The notes below the pieces were generated by a model. That model was not told the DNA's origin. It saw only the letters and a program-made list of their open reading frames with translations, and made no database searches. A DNA stretch of 63,831 nucleotides, filler included, from Welwitschia mirabilis (taxonomy: Eukaryota): NCBI GenBank assembly GCA_051453625.1. It is 4 parts of one record of this genome, joined end to end, with 100 filler letters (N's around TTAATTAATTAA, not from the genome) between each part and the next. Parts side by side here need not be neighbours in the genome. Positions count along the whole stretch, not along the records: positions 1 to 29,656 come from JBOZIK010000001.1; 3 more parts are not named here. The stretch is one strand, 5' to 3'. Positions 22,190 to 42,650 of this stretch are shown in pieces (positions within the stretch are counted from its first letter, which is position 1; the number at the start of each line of letters is the position of its first letter). The translations under genes and the position numbers were made by a program.

Positions 22190-23200
22190 CCACCTACAAT
22201 CGCATCGCATTTGACACTCCACAGAATTCAACTTTGAAGAAAAGCAACCCATTCCCAAAGCAGCAAGTTAGTGCAGGAGCAAGCAATGGATTCAGCATCT
22301 GAAAACAATTAAAAAAAAGCCCAACAAAAAGCCCGACGGAGGACACGAGTCACGATACAAGGTTTTGCAGGGAGAAACTTTAAGGCATGGAAATGCCATG
22401 TCATTAGAAAAAGAAAGAAAGTTCGTAGTCACTCATCTCATCTGCATATTCATCATGCATCATCCATATATCACCGATGCAATGCAGAACGCAGAGGATC
22501 CTCACACAAATTCTTAAAGCGAAGCAATGCAGATTATGATGATAATGATCAGACATTGTATGTCTGAAATGCCGATATATCATCCGGCTCTTACACGTAA
22601 CCAATAGCTCCTTTTCTTCTCTCTCACCTCCTCTCACCTGCTCCGAATTCCAACATCCCAAAGCATTCATCAGTCTATCTTATTCACGATCACAATCACA
22701 GTACATTCCCTCATTATGCGCTTCCCCTCTTCTTCTCTTTTTCGCCTCTTATCCACTTCAAAGTCTCCTCGATTTTCTCGACTGCCTCCCTCTGCAATTT
22801 TTGTCCATGGCTCCATTCTGAAAGTCGGGAAATGGGGGCAGCTCCTTATCTGGTAGTGCTTTTCGCCATTTTTTATCTCGCCACCTCTTCTTCGCCGTAT
22901 TTGATTTCGTCTGTAATTTCGGATTCGGAGGCTCCATCGCCGGAGTTACCTGTGTCGCCTTCTCCGCCGACCCCTTTCATTCCGGTGGCGACTCTCGCCA
23001 ACATATCGGTTTCCAATGGTGGAAAATTTATTCCCGATTTCGAGCCAAATCACTTCAGTTACCGTCTTTTGTTTGGATCCGATGTTCGGTATTTTACTAT
23101 CACCGTTCACTTCCCGGCATCTGAACAGGTATTACAGCTCTTTCTGCAATCATTTATATAGAGGGGTTTCGATTAGCAGGTTCAAGTCACTGTAGCAGTA
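22190..23200 (+). promoter_or_regulatory. CpG-retaining promoter/5' UTR/first-exon island
   Basis: Abrupt rise in CG dinucleotides and a CT-rich leader (22610-22800), in contrast to the CG-depleted TE surroundings. Confidence 0.7.
22832..23128 (+). CDS. Exon 1 of a secreted protein: signal peptide, Pro-rich linker and N-terminal half of a cadherin-like beta-sandwich domain
   Basis: ATG in an AAATGG context. MGAAPYLVVLFAIFYLATSSS is a hydrophobic signal-like segment, followed by EAPSPELPVSPSPPTP and ATLANISVSNGGKFIPDFEPNHFSYRLLFGSDVRYFTITVHFPASEQ. The phase-0 donor is CAG|GTATTA at 23128/23129. Confidence 0.85.
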
Positions 23201-23653
23201 TTTCAGGGTCTTTCTGTAGCTTATATTTTTTTTCCTGCTTCTGATTCATATTTAATTTAGGAGGTGTACAATCAGTCATAAACTCAAAACTACTTATACG
23301 CGATTCTTTATACCAAATTGTTGAATCCCAGCTGTGTCTTATTTTGAGACATTAGAATCGAATTTCCTGTCTTGCCTTATGAACTTCAGTCATGCCGGAT
23401 ATTTCTTGATAAGAGAGGAATAAACAGTTTCTACTTTGTTAGTATTGTAAACAAATACGTTAATTCCCAGATAAAATAGACGCGCTTGTCTGGGGTAGGT
23501 CTTACTGATCGTTCCTAGAAAGACAATATAAGCATAAAGAATTCATGCTCTCACCCATAGCAAACTGAAAAATTTAAACAGAAATGAGGCTGGGAATTGG
23601 ACTAGTATTGTAGGTTGTCAACTATTTTTTACATATGAAATCGTCTCTCTCTC

Positions 23654-23772
23654 TTTTTTTTTTTTAAGTATAAAGGTCTACGTTTCTGTCAATTGTATTT
23701 TGTTGGAATGCGAACCTATCACATGACCTCTTGTAATGGCAGCCAATCTCTTTACCGATAAACTACTTACTG
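23654..23772 (-). mobile_element. tRNA-derived SINE in intron 1
   Basis: On the minus strand: A-box TAGTTTATCGG (23765-23755), B-box GGTTCGCATTCC (23716-23705), a short body and a 12-A tail (T run 23654-23665). Confidence 0.6.
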
Positions 23773-24675
23773 AAGTCTTTTTATTTGAATCATCAAATAA
23801 TTAAAACTTGGAAAACCATTTTTAATGGAAAATGCTAATTTAACTGTACAGATTCGTTTACTACGTAAATCAATTTTGCCTTGTGAAATTGGTTTACTAC
23901 CTTAGGGTCACGATCTGAGCTATCAGCAACAAGAAAGCTTTGTCAATGGCATGCTCGAGATGCTTCATATGCAATCAGTACAACAAAATGCAGCTAGTAA
24001 TCTACGATAAGAGATTACATACAGTGCCATGACAGAGGCTATTCTTCCATGAAAACTCATCACCAAATCTGAGATTACTTACTGGTGATTTCAAAATGAA
24101 CTTGTGGCTTACCATACGATATCTAGATTTCTCTCTTAAGGAGAAAAGTCCACTACCAAATCTAGAGATCAGTTGTGCCTGAACATAAAAACATTAAAAG
24201 ATCATATGATAAATGGACTGACTGCTTACATTTTAAACAATGATTGAGTTTTCCTGCCTCCATTTGACAGGTCTCTGAGTTCAAAAATTTGCAGAGCATA
24301 AGTTTGTGAATACAAAGATCAGAACATTAACTGAAATAATGTAGTGAAATGAACATTGAAGTAATAAAATTATGCTTCAAGAGCATTAAAATCCATGCTT
24401 TATTGCCTACTTAGATGTCACAGATAACTTGTTTTGCATTTTGCATAAGCAAGAAATTTCTGTTGAAATGAACATAATTTTATTTTTCCTTTTCATCAGA
24501 TGATCCTATTATTGTTGGTGTGTTTTGTGCTTTCCTTGCCTCAAGAGTTTTCTCATTAGGCTATGATCATTCTGCCCCTAGATGCATGGAGTAAGAATCT
24601 AGAGATGTTCATTCATTTTAAGCAGAATTGTTTTCCAATATAACTAATAATTTTTATGTTGTTATAACATCCCAG

Positions 24676-24838
24676 GCTGAAAACTACTATGAAGCATCCA
24701 TTGACTCTGTACCTTTGAAAAGTGGTATTCCAAGTTCCCTACTTAAACTTGGGAAAAGAGGAGAAATCACCCCCTTCAACATTTTTGTTATGGTTGTCAA
24801 TCACAAACCTTCTATTTATCAACTAATGGCAAGTAGAG
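24676..24838 (+). CDS. Exon 2: C-terminal half of the cadherin-like beta-sandwich domain
   Basis: Acceptor CCCAG|GCT is phase 0, matching exon 1. Encodes AENYYEASIDSVPLKSGIPSSLLKLGKRGEITPFNIFVMVVNHKPSIYQLMASR. The phase-1 donor is GAG|GTAACT. Confidence 0.8.
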
Positions 24839-27391
24839 GTAACTTCCAGAATTTCTTTTGTAATTACTGGCTACTATTGCAGTGTCACTAGGATTCACCA
24901 AACCTTGCTACTTTCTGTCAAAGATATTATCTAAATTGTCTCTCGTGTGTGCAAAAATCTTGTTTAAATGCTAGATGAATGGCTTCTTCCTAAAGCATGT
25001 ATTTGCTAGTAAAGTCCAGCGTTTGAATTGAAGATTATACTTCAGAAATGATGCTTTGCATTTTCTTATTTTCATATGCTAATATTTGAATCATAAAAAT
25101 TCAGTTTTTAACTTATATGTGCTCTACAAAGATGCAACTGTTTTGATAGTTGCAGATAACCCAGNNNNNNNNNNNNNNNNNNNNNNNNNNNNNNNNNNNN
25201 NNNNNNNNNNNNNNNNNNNNNNNNNNNNNNNNNNNNNNNNNNNNNNNNNNNNNNNNNNNNNNNNATAACCCATATATTTTTTATAGTGGTGAAATAGGTC
25301 TATGGACTACAGGATTTGTACTGTATCTACTATAATGAATAAGTTGACTATTGACATTGCTTGAGCACACAATTTTAAGTCCTTTCATTGGAAAGTAAAG
25401 GATTCTTATCTTTGGCAACATGAGATGGTGCATGAAGAAGTTATAGTAAACCTCTGTTTTGTTGATTGTGTCATTGTTCAGGAAGCCAAAGTTGACCGCT
25501 TAAAGTTGTTAGCATAGTTAAGAATGATGTAAACATGAGGAGGGTAACTAGAGACCTTACAAAACGATATTTGTCCTAGGTTCTAACCAAAATCCTAACC
25601 AGAATTTTGCAATATACTTTTCACAAAGCTGATATTTGGTATTTAAGTTAGGTTTACCTTAGGTTGTTATGAATTGTGATGGCACACCAAATGTCTCTTA
25701 CTCATATTTTCTTGTGCCTTTCTTATTCTTCATTCCAATCCCTTAGATGGCTGGCCCTAGACAAGGTGATTTAACCTTACCTTATGATGACTTACAAGTT
25801 ATTTACGTACTCACCTATGTGGATATGATTGTTGTAGCTTCGTATGGTACACTTCTAGACAAGGACGCTAGTTCTTGTTTTGTTTGAATTTGACATGAGA
25901 TGGGTGATTTCTAGAGTTTTTNNNNNNNNNNNNNNNNNNNNNNNNNNNNNNNNNNNNNNNNNNNNNNNNNNNNNNNNNNNNNNNNNNNNNNNNNNNNNNN
26001 NNNNNNNNNNNNNNNNNNNNNNNNNNNNNNNNNNNNNNNNNNNNNNNNNNNNNNNNNNNNNNNNNNNNNNNNNNNNNNNNNNNNNNNNNNNNNNNNNNNN
26101 NNNNNNNNNNNNNNNNNNNNNNNNNNNNNNNNNNNNNNNNNNNNNNNNNNNNNNNNNNNNNNNNNNNNNNNNNNNNNNNNNNNNNNNNNNNNNNNNNNNN
26201 NNNNNNNNNNNNNNNNNNNNNNNNNNNNNNNNNNNNNNNNNNNNNNNNNNNNNNNNNNNNNNNNNNNNNNNNNNNNNNNNNNNNNNNNNNNNNNNNNNNN
26301 NNNNNNNNNNNNNNNNNNNNNNNNNNNNNNNNNNNNNNNNNNNNNNNNNNNNNNNNNNNNNNNNNNNNNNNNNNNNNNNNNNNNNNNNNNNNNNNNNNNN
26401 NNNNNNNNNNNNNNNNNNNNNNNNNNNNNNNNNNNNNNNNNNNNNNNNNNNNNNNNNNNNNNNNNNNNNNNNNNNNNNNNNNNNNNNNNNNNNNNNNNNN
26501 NNNNNNNNNNNNNNNNNNNNNNNNNNNNNNNNNNNNNNNNNNNNNNNNNNNNNNNNNNNNNNNNNNNNNNNNNNNNNNNNNNNNNNNNNNNNNNNNNNNN
26601 NNNNNNNNNNNNNNNNNNNNNNNNNNNNNNNNNNNNNNNNNNNNNNNNNNNNNNNNNNNNNNNNNNNNNNNNNNNNNNNNNNNNNNNNNNNNNNNNNNNN
26701 NNNNNNNNNNNNNNNNNNNNNNNNNNNNNNNNNNNNNNNNNNNNNNNNNNNNNNNNNNNNNNNNNNNNNNNNNNNNNNNNNNNNNNNNNNNNNNNNNNNN
26801 NNNNNNNNNNNNNNNNNNNNNNNNNNNNNNNNNNNNNNNNNNNNNAACATAATATTAAGTTAAAGATGAACACATATGTAAGAAGCTTCATAGTTTTATC
26901 AAGTAGAAATTGATTATGCACGCACTCAACATTAGTAAGCATAAATTCATCCCTTGGAAGCACAAAGCTTGACGATTTCTTACTTTCTCGCCCTTTCTCC
27001 TACATCCTTGTAGATAGATTAAGCACCATTCATTATAGATATGGACATAGCACACAAGAATATATTTCTTCTTAAGTAGAANNNNNNNNNNNNNNNNNNN
27101 NNNNNNNNNNNNNNNNNNNNNNNNNNNNNNNNNNNNNNNNNNNNNNNNNNNNNNNNNNNNNNNNNNNNNNNNNNNNNNNNNNNNNNNNNNNNNNNNNNNN
27201 NNNNNNNNNNNNNNNNNNNNNNNNNNNNNNNNNNNNNNNNNNNNNNNNNNNNNNNNNNNNNNNNNNNNNNNNNNNNNNNNNNNNNNNNNNNNNNNNNNNN
27301 NNNNNNNNNNNNNNNNNNNNNNNNNNNNNNNNNNNNNNNNNNNNNNNNNNNNNNNNNNNNNNNNNNNNNNNNNNNNNNNNNNNNNNNNNNN

Positions 27392-28641
27392 TAACCCATT
27401 GCCAATTGCTTCTCCTTTTATGATGCTTGTTATAATCAACTAGTTCTTTGTTTTTAAACCTAAACTTATTGTTACATCCAAAATAGGTAGCTTTCTTGTA
27501 TGGACTGAAAATTGTATGTGTCCATATTCTTGACAATAAAAACATTTGAGGCTATCCTTACCAAAAGAGTAATATGTAGTACTTGGACCAAAAAAGTTAA
27601 GGGTAGGAGACATAGCTAAAGAGCTTCCAATACCTGATTTGTCAAAAGTTCTCTTACCTAGTCCCAACAATTTGTTGAGATTCTCTTTTCCATCGGCTAG
27701 CCGCTCAGCTACNNNNNNNNNNNNNNNNNNNNNNNNNNNNNNNNNNNNNNNNNNNNNNNNNNNNNNNNNNNNNNNNNNNNNNNNNNNNNNNNNNNNNNNN
27801 NNNNNNNNNNNNNNNNNNNNNNNNNNNNNNNNNNNNNNNNNNNNNNNNNNNNNNNNNNNNNNNNNNNNNNNNNNNNNNNNNNNNNNNNNNNNNNNNNNNN
27901 NNNNNNNNNNNNNNNNNNNNNNNNNNNNNNNNNNNNNNNNNNNNNNNNNNNNNNNNNNNNNNNNNNNNNNNNNNNNNNGGGAGGATCCTCTTCTGTTTGT
28001 AAGGAAGCTTCATAGGCCATAAGAGACCCTCTGAACACTTCTACCCGGATTCTATCAATGTCCTTACTTTCCTCCATGGCTGTAACTTTGGGCTTGAATT
28101 TCTTGGTGAGGCTTCTAAGTATTTTTCGAACCACTCTATTTTCAGAGACTATTTCTCCAAGTCCCCACATGACATTGACAATGTTATTGATCTTACTAGT
28201 GTACTCAGCTATGGACTCTGATTCNNNNNNNNNNNNNNNNNNNNNNNNNNNNNNNNNNNNNNNNNNNNNNNNNNNNNNNNNNNNNNNNNNNNNNNNNNNN
28301 NNNNNNNNNNNNNNNNNNNNNNNNNNNNNNNNNNNNNNNNNNNNNNNNNNNNNNNNNNNNNNNNNNNNNNNNNNNNNNNNNNNNNNNNNNNNNNNNNNNN
28401 NNNNNNNNNNNNNNNNNNNNNNNNNNNNNNNNNNNNNNNNNNNNNNNNNNNNNNNNNNNNNNNNNNNNNNNNNNNNNNNNNNNNNNNNNNNNNNNNNNNN
28501 NNNNNNNNNNNNNNNNNNAATGTCACAATCCAGAGACTGCAAGAATATGGACATTTTGGTTTTCCAATATGCATAGTTCGATCCGGAAAATAAAGGTGCT
28601 CTTGAGATAGACTTCCCTTCAGCATAACTTGTGGATGCCAT
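27392..28641 (-). pseudogene. SIRE-like Copia gag (relatively young, gapped)
   Basis: MASTSYAEGKSISRAPLFSGSNYAYWKTKMSIFLQSLD is a Copia gag N-terminus. ESIAEYTSKINNIVN...VVRKILRSLTKKFKPKVTAMEESKD is the UBN2-type gag core. LLGLGKRTFDKSGIG and the CFYCQEYGH knuckle are typical of the extended SIRE gag. Confidence 0.9.
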
Positions 28642-28685
28642 CTAGGGTGAACCTGTAATCACAAAAAGAAATACCAATCTAGATC

Positions 28686-28703
28686 AACCAGGCTTTGATA
28701 CCA
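28686..28703 (-). promoter_or_regulatory. tRNA-iMet primer binding site
   Basis: Minus strand TGGTATCAAAGCCTGGTT matches TGGTATCAGAGCCAGGTT at 16/18 positions and lies 2 nt after the LTR-terminal CA. Confidence 0.9.
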
Positions 28704-28705
28704 AT

Positions 28706-29656
28706 TGTTAGGATCGATTGACACCCTAGAGGGGGGGTGAATAGGGTGAATCACAAAATTTAATTACTTAATTTTAAGAAACTTAAATCAGAACTTTGCT
28801 TGAGAAAGTAACTCAGAAATTACTGAATCATGGACACAATAAAACAAACTCAAACAAATAGAAAGAGTGCACCACGGTTTTATAGTGGTTCGGCAATCCC
28901 NNNNNNNNNNNNNNNNNNNNNNNNNNNNNNNNNNNNNNNNNNNNNNNNNNNNNNNNNNNNNNNNNNNNNNNNNNNNNNNNNNNNNNNNNNNNNNNNNNNN
29001 NNNNNNNNNNNNNNNNNNNNNNNNNNNNNNNNNNNNNNNNNNNNNNNNNNNNNNNNNNNNNNNNNNNNNNNNNNNNNNNNNNNNNNNNNNNNNNNNNNNN
29101 NNNNNNNNNNNNNNNNNNNNNNNNNNNNNNNNNNNNNNNNNNNNNNNNNNNNNNNNNNNNNNNNNNNNNNNNNNNNNNNNNNNNNNNNNNNNNNNNNNNN
29201 NNNNNNNNNNNNNNNNNNNNNNNNNNNNNNNNNNNNNNNNNNNNNNNNNNNNNNNNNNNNNNNNNNNNNNNNNNNNNNNNNNNNNNNNNNNNNNNNNNNN
29301 NNNNNNNNNNNNNNNNNNNNNNNNNNNNNNNNNNNNNNNNNNNNNNNNNNNNNNNNNNNNNNNNNNNNNNNNNNNNNNNNNNNNNNNNNNNNNNNNNNNN
29401 NNNNNNNNNNNNNNNNNNNNNGATAGTCGGTCGGACGTCCCAAGATAAATTGCCGGACGTCCCATTTTTAAATGGAAACTTTGACAGAGAACTGAGACAA
29501 GGTCCGGATGTCCCAAGCAGGATTGTCGGATGTCCTAATACAAATGACAGATTATAGGGTCGGACGTCCCGTGTTGTATAGTCGGATGTCCCAATATAAA
29601 GAGATAGCATACAGGGTCGGACGTCCCGGGTTGAGAGGTCGGACGTCCTAGAACAT
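28706..29656 (-). repeat. 5' LTR (3' portion) of the young SIRE element, with GTCGGACGTCC repeats
   Basis: Minus-strand end reads CTATTCACCCCCCCTCTAGGGTGTCAATCGATCCTAACA. About eight CGGA(C/T)GTCC units lie at 29430-29650. Confidence 0.85.
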
Positions 29657-29700
29657 NNNNNNNNNNNNNNNNNNNNNNNNNNNNNNNNNNNNNNNNNNNN

Positions 29701-29712
29701 TTAATTAATTAA
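29701..29712. other. Artificial scaffold linker TTAATTAATTAA
   Basis: Centred in an exact 44N+12+44N block (29657-29756). The 12-mer has stops in all six frames. Confidence 0.95.
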
Positions 29713-29756
29713 NNNNNNNNNNNNNNNNNNNNNNNNNNNNNNNNNNNNNNNNNNNN

Positions 29757-34842: not shown

Positions 34843-34907
<65 letters not shown>

Positions 34908-36450
34908 TAATAAAAGAACTTTCTACATGGCTGAGAAATCTATTTTCCAACTACACTTTTTTCTCCTTAACTCTCTTAACTTCAAATTCTTAAAAAGAAC
35001 CTTTTTCATTTCAAAATTCATTTTCCATTTCTAGAAGTTTTACTTTCTCTTTTAGTTTTAAGTTATATTCTTATAGTTGATGAGTATTGGGTAATTCTAA
35101 GATCAAAGAATTAATTGCAAGACATAAAGATTCTATTTTATCATCCTCCCCTACTTTGGAAGAATTGCTTAAATTAGGTTGCGAAATGAGTCTCTTATAG
35201 TGTAAAAGAATCCAATGGTTTTATATATTTTTGCTCATAATCTTATGGTGGAGGAAGAGTTTGTTGCCTAGAGGTAGGATACTATTCTGAAGGTTTAAAT
35301 GAGGTTAATGTTCTTACCTCAAAGAGAGCTATAAAAAATAATTCTAAACTATTTTTACTTTTACAAAAGAATCTTGAAACGTTTTTCTAGAGGAGAATCC
35401 TTATAATAAATGAAGGGAATTCCAATCCAATCATCATCTATTTTGTGACATTTATCATATTAGAATTTGATTTACAAATATATTGAAAAATAGTTTTACA
35501 AGTATCAATGTTTTTACTAAAGGGATTCTAAATTGCATGTGTTAAATAAACTCCCCATATACCCATTTCTTTTTGTTTATTAATGATAAGAGCTAAGTTT
35601 AAAGATATAATTCTAGTGATTATGAATGCCTCTAGATCCTTACTTTTATCTATGTCCACCCATTCATAAGACTTTCAAAATGTTTCATACATAGACAAGT
35701 GTTGTCTTTCCTATTTACCTCTAATTGGTAGACACAAAATGATTTTAATGTCTTCTAAAGTCACTTAAATATTTACATTATTAACTCGTAAGGATAAGTT
35801 AAAATGATCATCAGCAATAATAAGATTTTATAAATTCATAAACTTCTTCATTGCTATGACTCTTAGAAAATGTTAACCAGTTCCACCATTATAACTCTAC
35901 AATTCTATCTTTCAATTTGATANNNNNNNNNNNNNNNNNNNNNNNNNNNNNNNNNNNNNNNNNNNNNNNNNNNNNNNNNNNNNNNNNNNNNNNNNNNNNN
36001 NNNNNNNNNNNNNNNNNNNNNNAAACTGCCGATAAACTCATTTCTTTTTATTTGTTAAGAATAGGAGCTAAGTTTGAAGATACAATTTTGGTGATTATAA
36101 AGGCCTCTAGATCATTACTTTTATCCATGTTCACTCATCCATCCTTATTCATAATACTTCCAAAATTTCTCATACATAGACAGGTGTCATCTTTTCCTGT
36201 TTACCTTTAATATACTTCTTCCTCCAATTATTAAATACAAAATTCTTCTAATGTCTGCTAAAGTCACTTAAATATTTACATTATTAAAAGGATAAGTTAA
36301 AATGATCATTAGCAATAATAATATTTTTATAAATTTATAAACTTCTTCATTGCTATGACTCTTAGAACATGTTAACCAGTTCCACCATTATAACTCTACA
36401 ATTCTATCTTTCAGTTTGATAAAACTTGAATTTTTAAACAATTTTGAAAA
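33150..36450 (-). pseudogene. Degenerate retrotransposon accessory (env-like) ORF with a coiled-coil-like C-terminal region
   Basis: EEVYEF...DDHFNLSLRVNNVNI*VTLEDIKIILCLP and MIGLEFPSFIIRIL parallel the motifs in 46450-49600. The downstream part is K/E-rich. Confidence 0.55.
34843..34904. repeat. (GA)31 microsatellite, truncated by a gap
   Basis: Directly visible. Confidence 0.97.
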
Positions 36451-41019: not shown

Positions 41020-42650
41020 GGTAAAGCCCAATTTCCAAGTTCCTGTACAACTTTGTAAACCTTTCATTACGTGGAGGTTTTGTGAATACATCACAAAGTT
41101 GATTATTAGTATTGATATATTACATTGTGATGGCTATGTGCTGTATTGAATCCTTTGAGATGTTGGTGGTAAATCAACAAAAATCCTCTGTACTAATTTG
41201 AGTTTTAATGCCACAATGTGGACTACCTATTATATTATTAATGAAATGACTTTTTTTTTTAGTCTGCTCATACTTGAAGGATTTTCCTAATTAAACTTGA
41301 AGATGGATAGATGGTTGATTAATCTACATAGGAATATAATCATCTTATACATCTATAGAAGATAGATTAGTATCATTTACTCTAACATTTATAATTTCCT
41401 CAGCTACTCAGGTTCTATTGTTATACACCCCATGTGCTTTGATAATTGTAAAATATCCTAGAAAAATTCCTTCATCAACTTTTTAATTAAACTTTTTCAA
41501 CTTACCCTTTTTATTTAAGATAAATCACTTTGTTCTAATGAGGTCTTAGAATTAAATTGTCTTAACAGGGCTCTATTTGAAATGTAGAAAGCCGTGTTAA
41601 TTGCTTCTACCCAAAAATGAAAAGGAACCTTTTTATCATGTATTATCATTCTAGCCATTTCATTAAGTACTCTATCCTTTCTTTCTACTACATTTTGTTA
41701 GGGAATCATAAATGTAAAAAATTAATGTAGAATATCAAAATGTTCACAAAACTCTTTGAACCTTGCATTTNNNNNNNNNNNNNNNNNNNNNNNNNNNNNN
41801 NNNNNNNNNNNNNNNNNNNNNNNNNNNNNNNNNNNNNNNNNNNNNNNNNNNNNNNNNNNNNNNNNNNNNNTTTCTTTTAGTTACTCTATTTTGTTGTGAT
41901 GTCCTTGAAACTAAAAATTAATGTAGAATACCAAAATGTTCACAAAACTCTTTGAACCTTGCATTTTTAAGTTTTGTGCCATTATTACTTCTTATCATTT
42001 TGATCCTGTATCCTTTTTGATTATATAACCTAATACATAACTTAGAGAAAGCATTAAATACCTCATCCTTATATGTAAGGAAGGCTATCCATGTAAAATG
42101 AGAATAATCATCTATCATAGTTAAATAATACTATTTTGTACCTAAACTTTCTATAGATAAAAGACTAGTAATATCAAGGTTTAAGAGATCTAAAGGATGT
42201 TGAGTTGAGATAGTATTTTTCTTATTAAATATTACCCTTATCTACTTTTCCTTTTAACATGATTTACAAACTTGATTATCAATACTTTTTAATTTGAAAG
42301 GTCCTCTTACCATTTTTTTTATAGATAAAATTTTGAGTAAATCTGTATTTACATGTCTAAGGTTTTTGTGTCATGACACTGCTTTACCTGTTTTGCTTAA
42401 TAAACACTTAGTTTCATTATTAGAAATATCTTGTAGAGTGGTGATATATACATTTAACTTATTTATATCAATAAATCAAACTTTTATTAAATTTTATTCT
42501 CTAATGACATAATCATATTTTATAAAGGTAACAAAAAAATTTGCATTACATAATTAACTTACACTTAAAACATCATGTTGCAAACATTGTATTAAAAAAA
42601 TACATCCTTTACCTCTGGTAGATTACCTCCTTCAATAGTCCTAATTAAAG
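41020..42650 (-). pseudogene. Degenerate Copia pol (protease remnant, GAG-pre-integrase, integrase, RNase H tail), with RT missing
   Basis: HKNLRHVN...VCKSC; MIDDYSHFTWIAFLTYKDEVFNAFSKL...IKMIRSNNGTKLKNARFKEFCEHFGILH; FHFWVEAINTAFYI; then INTNNQLCDVFTKPPRNERFTKL at ~41150-41040. Confidence 0.85.

Follow-up and report, generated by a model that had tools for sequence, protein, structure and literature searches.

The 5′ two-thirds of an expressed, spliced gene lie on the plus strand of the window analysed here, a stretch of 63,831 nucleotides from the genome of Welwitschia mirabilis (assembly GCA_051453625.1) that joins four parts of one record end to end, positions 1 to 29,656 coming from JBOZIK010000001.1. 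The gene encodes a 211-residue protein with one β-rich domain. On balance, we favour as reasonably likely the reading that this is a single-pass type I membrane protein carrying a divergent unit of the PF12733 (cadherin-like beta sandwich) kind, which would bind wall material or glycans at the cell surface and be sorted through its tail.

The gene and its splicing are directly supported by RNA. Coding exon 1 (22832-23128, 99 codons) lies in the open frame 22601-23161, begins with the earliest in-frame ATG there, at 22832, and ends at a GT donor at 23129-23130. Intron 1 (23129-24675; 1547 bases, GT..AG, phase 0) closes with the acceptor AG at 24674-24675, and coding exon 2 (24676-24838, 54 codons plus one base) is followed by a phase-1 GT donor at 24839-24840 and the beginning of intron 2 (24839-25164), all on the plus strand, with N runs setting in from 25165. 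Exon 1 encodes a hydrophobic, signal-peptide-like N-terminus (residues ~1-21), a proline-rich stretch (~33-51) and the first half of the domain (52-99), whilst exon 2 encodes its second half (100-153), intron 1 interrupting the β-sandwich mid-way. An earlier sequence-only reading of this DNA had proposed the same two exons, with phase-compatible splice sites, as a plant gene that contains an intron and encodes a signal peptide and a linker; translation returns the peptides exactly as quoted there, hydropathy and translation bear out the N-terminus and the linker, which is the proline-rich stretch, and the RNA bears out the gene.

RNA was mapped to 22300-25164 from two transcript-like contig runs (X1 and X2) and two raw-read RNA sequencing (RNA-seq) runs (X5 and X8), together representing two studies; four contig runs had contained 0.16-0.24 of the query words, and two of these were used for mapping. 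The splicing of intron 1, with 1547 bases skipped between GT and AG, is recorded by 18 reads in X5, 13 reads in X8 (31 raw RNA-seq junction reads in total) and a single contig from each of X1 and X2, and it is the only joint listed in the mapped stretch; the RNA-seq check that the sequence-only reading had proposed for the 23128-24676 junction thus came out in its favour. Read depth was 0 across 23164-23643 in all four runs, and again from 24892 on (24892-25164). Elsewhere within intron 1, at 23644-24603, the two raw-read runs showed a low RNA depth (maximum 3.4), which over 24124-24603 came in X5 only from pairs with the first mate on the minus strand; this RNA may represent precursor not yet spliced, or else a second, weak transcript.

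The complete product is known from P0003, a 211-residue complete open reading frame from a Trinity assembly of Welwitschia mirabilis in EukProt, found by a word-indexed protein search with exon 1, to which it is 98% identical. Aligned to the window by tblastn, P0003 agrees with exon 1 in 97 of 99 residues and with exon 2 in all 54, and its sequence spans the junction between them. Exon depth and these matches, together with translation, are the basis of both exon assignments. Past 24838, both contigs and 16 + 13 raw reads run into sequence absent from the mapped stretch, where they continue in frame as P0003 from residue 154 onward with one conservative difference; since RNA extends beyond 24838 in this way, the phase-1 donor after exon 2 is in use. 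Residues 154-211 of P0003 have no match in the readable window, either by tblastn or in a scan with words of 4-6 residues, which returned scattered chance words only. Judging from the sequence at hand, the third coding part, which would encode the transmembrane helix and tail, must lie in one of the N runs from 25165 onward or past the window end, and it cannot be placed more closely because the stretch following exon 2 (25165-29756) is heavily broken by N runs. There are 40 such runs in the window, 18 of exactly 100 bases and the others of 44-924 bases (for example 25165-25264 and 25922-26845).

Upstream of the start codon, the transcribed leader, or 5′ untranslated region, occupies 22358-22831 on the plus strand; its approximate start is drawn from contig ends, read depth and the reading of the open frame, with contig pieces beginning at 22358, 22548 and 22578 and raw-read depth appearing from the bin 22396-22491. 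Two upstream ATGs lie in the leader, one at 22716 (a 46-codon frame, 22716-22856, which overlaps the main start at 22832 in a different reading frame) and one at 22807 (a 4-codon frame, 22807-22821), and they may dampen translation of the main open reading frame. RNA and window also differ at a few bases: 22665 A>T in both contigs and in 5/5 X8 reads, 22868 A>T in 12/28 X5 reads, which alters a residue of the signal peptide, 22882, where RNA reads again depart from the window, and 22914 T>G in 3/23 X8 reads. P0003 departs from the window at two residues, one of them through this last change. Most likely, the variants are allelic.

P0003 belongs to a small family. A word-indexed search with the full-length protein returned no match beyond P0003 itself, whereas phmmer with exon 1 against 1.84 billion representatives returned 17 matches at an expectation value (E) <= 0.001, namely two plant proteins and 15 long repeat proteins. 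The one further plant-like protein, P0015 (241 residues), is 50% identical to P0003 over 143 residues, helix included, and a two-sequence profile of P0003 and P0015 brought the family to six members in total: P0003, the partial P0023 from Taxus chinensis, and P0015, P0020, P0021 and P0022 from Logan contigs of ~1.1 kb. Annotated only as a partial 'hypothetical protein', P0023 ends exactly at the exon 2 boundary, and because its model stops where exon 2 ends, the same exon boundary is suggested for Taxus. The members keep the domain core, a glycosylation sequon, a juxtamembrane stretch and membrane helix, a tail motif and the lack of any cysteine in the domain. The family seems, from sequence searches of limited reach, to be confined to gymnosperms, with Welwitschia and Taxus as its named members; distant relatives escape a word-indexed search, and exon 1 was the only query in the exhaustive one, such that divergent orthologues in other plants may have been overlooked. 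The sequence-only reading had set the protein against what is familiar in flowering plants, a framing that does not suit Welwitschia, a gymnosperm; its suggestion of an uncharacterised plant family fares better, as no characterised plant family was matched in Pfam. Nor did the literature that we searched contain a description of a land-plant PF12733 member, the papers listed being concerned with bacteria, a phage or animals.

What, then, is the domain? We consider it quite likely, from profile and sequence comparison, that it is a divergent relative of the PF12733 units, albeit one that the Pfam criterion does not file as a member. The 15 non-plant proteins found by phmmer are 524-5855 residues long, and each was matched at 4-11 places by query residues ~53-94, with identities of 32-43% over ~30-45 residues. 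Fourteen of them were scanned against Pfam (P0011 was left out), and 12 of the 14 carry 3-13 PF12733 units, at E 4e-26 to 3e-232, the two without being P0009 and P0010; the units adjoin features typical of bacteria, among them an autotransporter domain, type IX secretion tails, a subtilase and a cohesin. A profile of 117 units, taken from 14 of the 15 repeat proteins, gives every one of the six family members a score of 20.6-23.0 bits, with an end-to-end alignment in four. When the whole domain was compared with these units by hhalign, the score was 51.6 (probability 96.5%, E 8.5e-10), over 83 columns end to end at 29% identity, against 10.1 +/- 2.0 and a maximum of 14.6 for 100 column shuffles; the exon-1 half by itself, which shows the sequence signature of the first three strands of a unit, reached 49.0, where the best of 100 shuffles came to 19.8. 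PF12733 is, moreover, the top Pfam match of P0003, whose residues 55-149 align to positions 1-84 of the 89 in the profile, and no other Pfam or NCBIfam family was found in any of the six members. A protein-language-model search, which we treat as a lead only, also placed PF12733 clusters nearest, with a score of 0.79 for the whole protein; residues 49-155 alone raised it to 0.89 and shared 174 features. The classical cadherin repeat PF00028 was not listed for P0003 at E <= 10, a setting at which the HMMER filters drop most matches above ~0.1.

Several results weigh against this kinship. P0003 reaches 15.1 bits (E 0.032), below the PF12733 gathering cut-off of 24.2 bits, and so is not a Pfam member; PF12733 is listed at E <= 1 for only one of the six members and is absent from the other five; and when the exon 1 and exon 2 peptides were scanned separately, Pfam gave no relevant match. 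The similarity also falls mostly within the first 40 residues of the domain, where the scores are inflated, because exon 1 itself selected the proteins behind the unit profile. The exon-2 half, which played no part in picking the bacterial proteins, is for that reason the fairer test, and here the signal is weak: E 0.01 and a probability of 4% in hhalign, and 1.7 bits against the unit profile in HMMER. Its hhalign score of 15.6, over the last 24 profile positions (60-83 of 83) and in register, where the final two strands of a unit close with a Tyr ... Arg pattern, nevertheless lies above all 100 shuffles (8.8 +/- 1.7, maximum 15.0). The assignment to PF12733 made by the sequence-only reading is therefore half upheld: the relationship is supported by phmmer and hhalign, and the Pfam score falls short of the cut-off.

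The fold is probably an immunoglobulin (Ig)-like sandwich, as far as a predicted model can tell, and gives no family assignment. AlphaFold was given six sequences only, and the best model has a mean predicted local distance difference test (pLDDT) score of 65.6, with eight strand elements over residues 58-153 and domain blocks at 65-81, a PF12733 unit being a sandwich of seven strands and ~85-90 residues; its structural matches are generic Ig-like ones only. The other four models reached pLDDT 51-54 and a run with the Taxus member placed first reached 40.2, which is unusable, and this too counts against the reading we favour. Hence the fold check that had been proposed for the spliced peptide yielded Ig-like matches from one model, generic in kind and not reproduced in a second run. 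Searches of Protein Data Bank (PDB) sequences were negative, with no related chain for the family profile and, for the PF12733 repeat protein P0004, no chain at E <= 0.001 by phmmer. Two PknB PASTA chains, which came up with the family profile at E 1.8, were taken as noise.

Such a fold invites the alternative of a generic Ig-like sandwich of the E-set type, with no specific kinship to PF12733, in which the N-terminal strand motif would be convergent or due to chance. We regard this as unlikely: an unbiased search of 1.84 billion proteins with exon 1 brought up PF12733 proteins in 12 of the 14 non-plant matches scanned, the PF12733 alignment runs end to end in register, none of the 100 shuffles reaches the score of either half, and the language-model neighbours are all PF12733. 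Among the closest systems, we would also name the Ig-like domains of Bacteroides, such as 3v9f_A and 8aa2_T, which belong to hybrid two-component sensors and to proteins of glycan utilisation.

Turning to the whole protein, we think it likely that its 211 residues form a single-pass membrane protein with one PF12733-like domain. From N- to C-terminus, the order would be a signal-peptide-like N-terminus, a Ser/Pro-rich, extensin-like stretch, the single domain, a juxtamembrane stretch with a transmembrane helix, and a tail of ~20-45 residues. After exon 2, P0003 adds 58 residues: a juxtamembrane stretch that is conserved, then the hydrophobic helix, then a tail of modest length. Hydropathy on the Kyte-Doolittle scale exceeds 1.6 in 19-residue windows at 161-169 in P0003, and does so at the equivalent place in all four of the other full-length members; AlphaFold predicts a helix at 157-194 of P0003, with a block pLDDT of 84-94. 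The domain itself is ~100 residues long, β-rich and cysteine-free across the members. These 58 residues bear directly on the sequence-only reading, which had envisaged a soluble secreted protein with a further module following the phase-1 donor. A soluble protein with more extracellular modules downstream would indeed suit the hydrophobic N-terminus and a phase-1 donor placed right at the domain end, but the complete transcript frame adds only the helix and short tail, the four homologues share this layout, and the RNA reads beyond 24838 follow the P0003 transcript; we hold this alternative to be very improbable, and neither solubility nor an added module survives, the protein being membrane-anchored.

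A type I topology, with the domain toward the secretory lumen or the cell wall, would follow from four features, on the strength of which the domain is placed outside: the hydrophobic N-termini of Welwitschia and Taxus, the sequon, the Ser/Pro-rich stretch and the positive charge after the helix. Hydropathy reaches 3.09 over residues 7-16 of the Welwitschia N-terminus and 2.74 in that of Taxus. An N-x-S/T sequon stands at the domain start in 6/6 members, and Ser/Pro-rich stretches of this kind are hydroxylated and glycosylated in plant wall proteins. Positive charges are more numerous behind the helix than ahead of it, a difference that is clear in the Logan-contig homologues only. Two points tell against this orientation: the post-helix excess is small in Welwitschia, and in 3/4 Logan-contig homologues the N-terminus is not convincingly hydrophobic (1.3-1.74 in the best 10-residue window), which leaves the topology uncertain. 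Across the family, a hydrophobic N-terminus is clear in two of the six members and possible in one more, as gauged by hydropathy.

Could the domain instead face the cytosol, the C-terminal helix serving as an anchor and no signal peptide being cleaved, if only in the homologues of conifer type? The three of six members that have no clear hydrophobic N-terminus would fit such an arrangement. The strongly hydrophobic N-termini of Welwitschia and Taxus would not, and neither would the universal sequon, a Ser/Pro-rich stretch typical of secretory-pathway proteins, or the distribution of charge about the helix in the Logan-contig homologues; we judge a cytosolic domain improbable. As regards the N-terminus, P0020 has a 41-residue upstream extension (residues 1-41) ahead of a shared MG start, and only there is its N-terminus hydrophobic. 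Three homologues that are similar to P0020 have neither this extension nor a clear signal peptide, which makes the true start and the topology of these proteins uncertain.

For the type I protein that we favour, a function can be proposed only tentatively, by analogy: that of a surface protein which binds wall or glycan material and is sorted through its tail is possible, though on the doubtful side. In the tail of all five full-length members stands a Tyr-x-x-hydrophobic motif, YRPI or YQPL, of the type to which adaptor medium subunits bind and similar to the YMPL motif of plant vacuolar sorting receptors. Adaptor complexes would sort the protein through this motif, in sorting or endocytosis, and the domain, in keeping with what has been suggested for its bacterial counterparts, would bind glycans or wall material without catalysis, making the protein a small wall-facing receptor or tether instead of an enzyme. 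Carbohydrate binding by the PF12733 domain has been argued from its bacterial partners by Anantharaman and Aravind 2010 (PMC2824669).

Set beside the PF12733 units, the gymnosperm domain is similar in length, begins with the start motif of the unit profile and shows a weak in-register match over its last strands, but it has a 14-15 residue insertion before those last strands. It also occurs in one copy, in contrast to the 3-17 tandem copies of PF12733 proteins, and within a 211-residue plant membrane protein as opposed to large bacterial surface proteins. Among plant single-pass proteins, class I formins and PERK kinases have an extensin-like extracellular stretch, and the likeness to them is one of layout only: signal peptide, outer Ser/Pro-rich stretch, one membrane helix and a cytosolic tail. 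Unlike these proteins, or the vacuolar sorting receptors, the gymnosperm protein has no kinase, FH2 or receptor domain in its tail, and there is no sequence similarity. The animal protein CPED1, as described in PMC2824669, is alike in being eukaryotic and in having one PF12733-type domain with an N-terminal signal. However, none of the six members has a PC-esterase or ATP-grasp match in Pfam, P0003 ends 58 residues after the domain, and the gymnosperm protein is far smaller and membrane-anchored.

How a domain of this kind came to be in gymnosperms is a separate matter, for which the sequence-only reading had offered either patchy retention or an old horizontal transfer. A bacterial PF12733 unit may have been transferred horizontally to the gymnosperm stem, with the introns, signal peptide and membrane anchor gained later, an account that is compatible with the reading we favour and that we would place among the less likely ones, though without dismissing it. 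Its attraction lies in the distribution, since the searches turned up no members beyond those of Welwitschia, Taxus and four transcript-like Logan contigs, and in the nearest other relatives, repeat proteins of bacterial type that bear an autotransporter domain, a cohesin or type IX secretion tails. It would also accord with the published view (PMC2824669) that the eukaryotic occurrences, known there only from metazoa and chlorophyte algae, derive from bacteria. Against it, there is no close bacterial donor, the identities being those given above for short matches (32-43%) and for the 83 aligned columns (29%); and it rests on searches that may miss divergent plant orthologues. A bolder version strikes us as decidedly unlikely: over 300 million years ago, the ancestor of today's gymnosperms would have captured the unit, which then acquired introns and was domesticated as a lineage-specific single-pass receptor or tether that faces the wall and is cycled by clathrin adaptors through its tail motif. 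Were it true, gymnosperms alone would have this class of cell-surface protein, and angiosperms would have no equivalent.

The remainder of the window holds little else that can be named. A scan of the 41 other open frames of at least 70 residues found two retrotransposon pieces only, both on the minus strand: a copia-type gag fragment (PF14223, E 6.5e-12) at 27979-28224, in an open frame starting at 28641 (27443-28641) and broken by N runs, and a copia-type integrase-core piece at 41921-42130 (within 41515-42130), which at 31.0 bits is just below the cut-off of 32.6. The gag piece may lie inside intron 2 of the gene. A GA/CT dinucleotide run at ~34843-34910 adjoins an N gap and reads as ERER.../SLSL... 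in translated frames. The window is AT-rich: its guanine-plus-cytosine (GC) fraction is 0.10-0.39 per 2-kb bin, mostly 0.24-0.31 and commonly about 0.27-0.30, and the richest bin (0.387) contains this gene; the low values agree with the 29.07% given for Welwitschia in PMC8275611.

The finding is modest in itself. If the relationship to PF12733 holds, this domain would extend to land plants, beyond the animals and green algae of the founding paper, and a single PF12733-like unit on a membrane anchor would be a new minimal architecture for it. If the reading as a whole holds, the gene would represent an uncharacterised and seemingly gymnosperm-confined family, whose sole annotation is that of a partial 'hypothetical protein' from Taxus. 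It would then be a candidate lineage-specific protein of the cell wall or surface, and a test case for old transfer of a domain from bacteria to plants.

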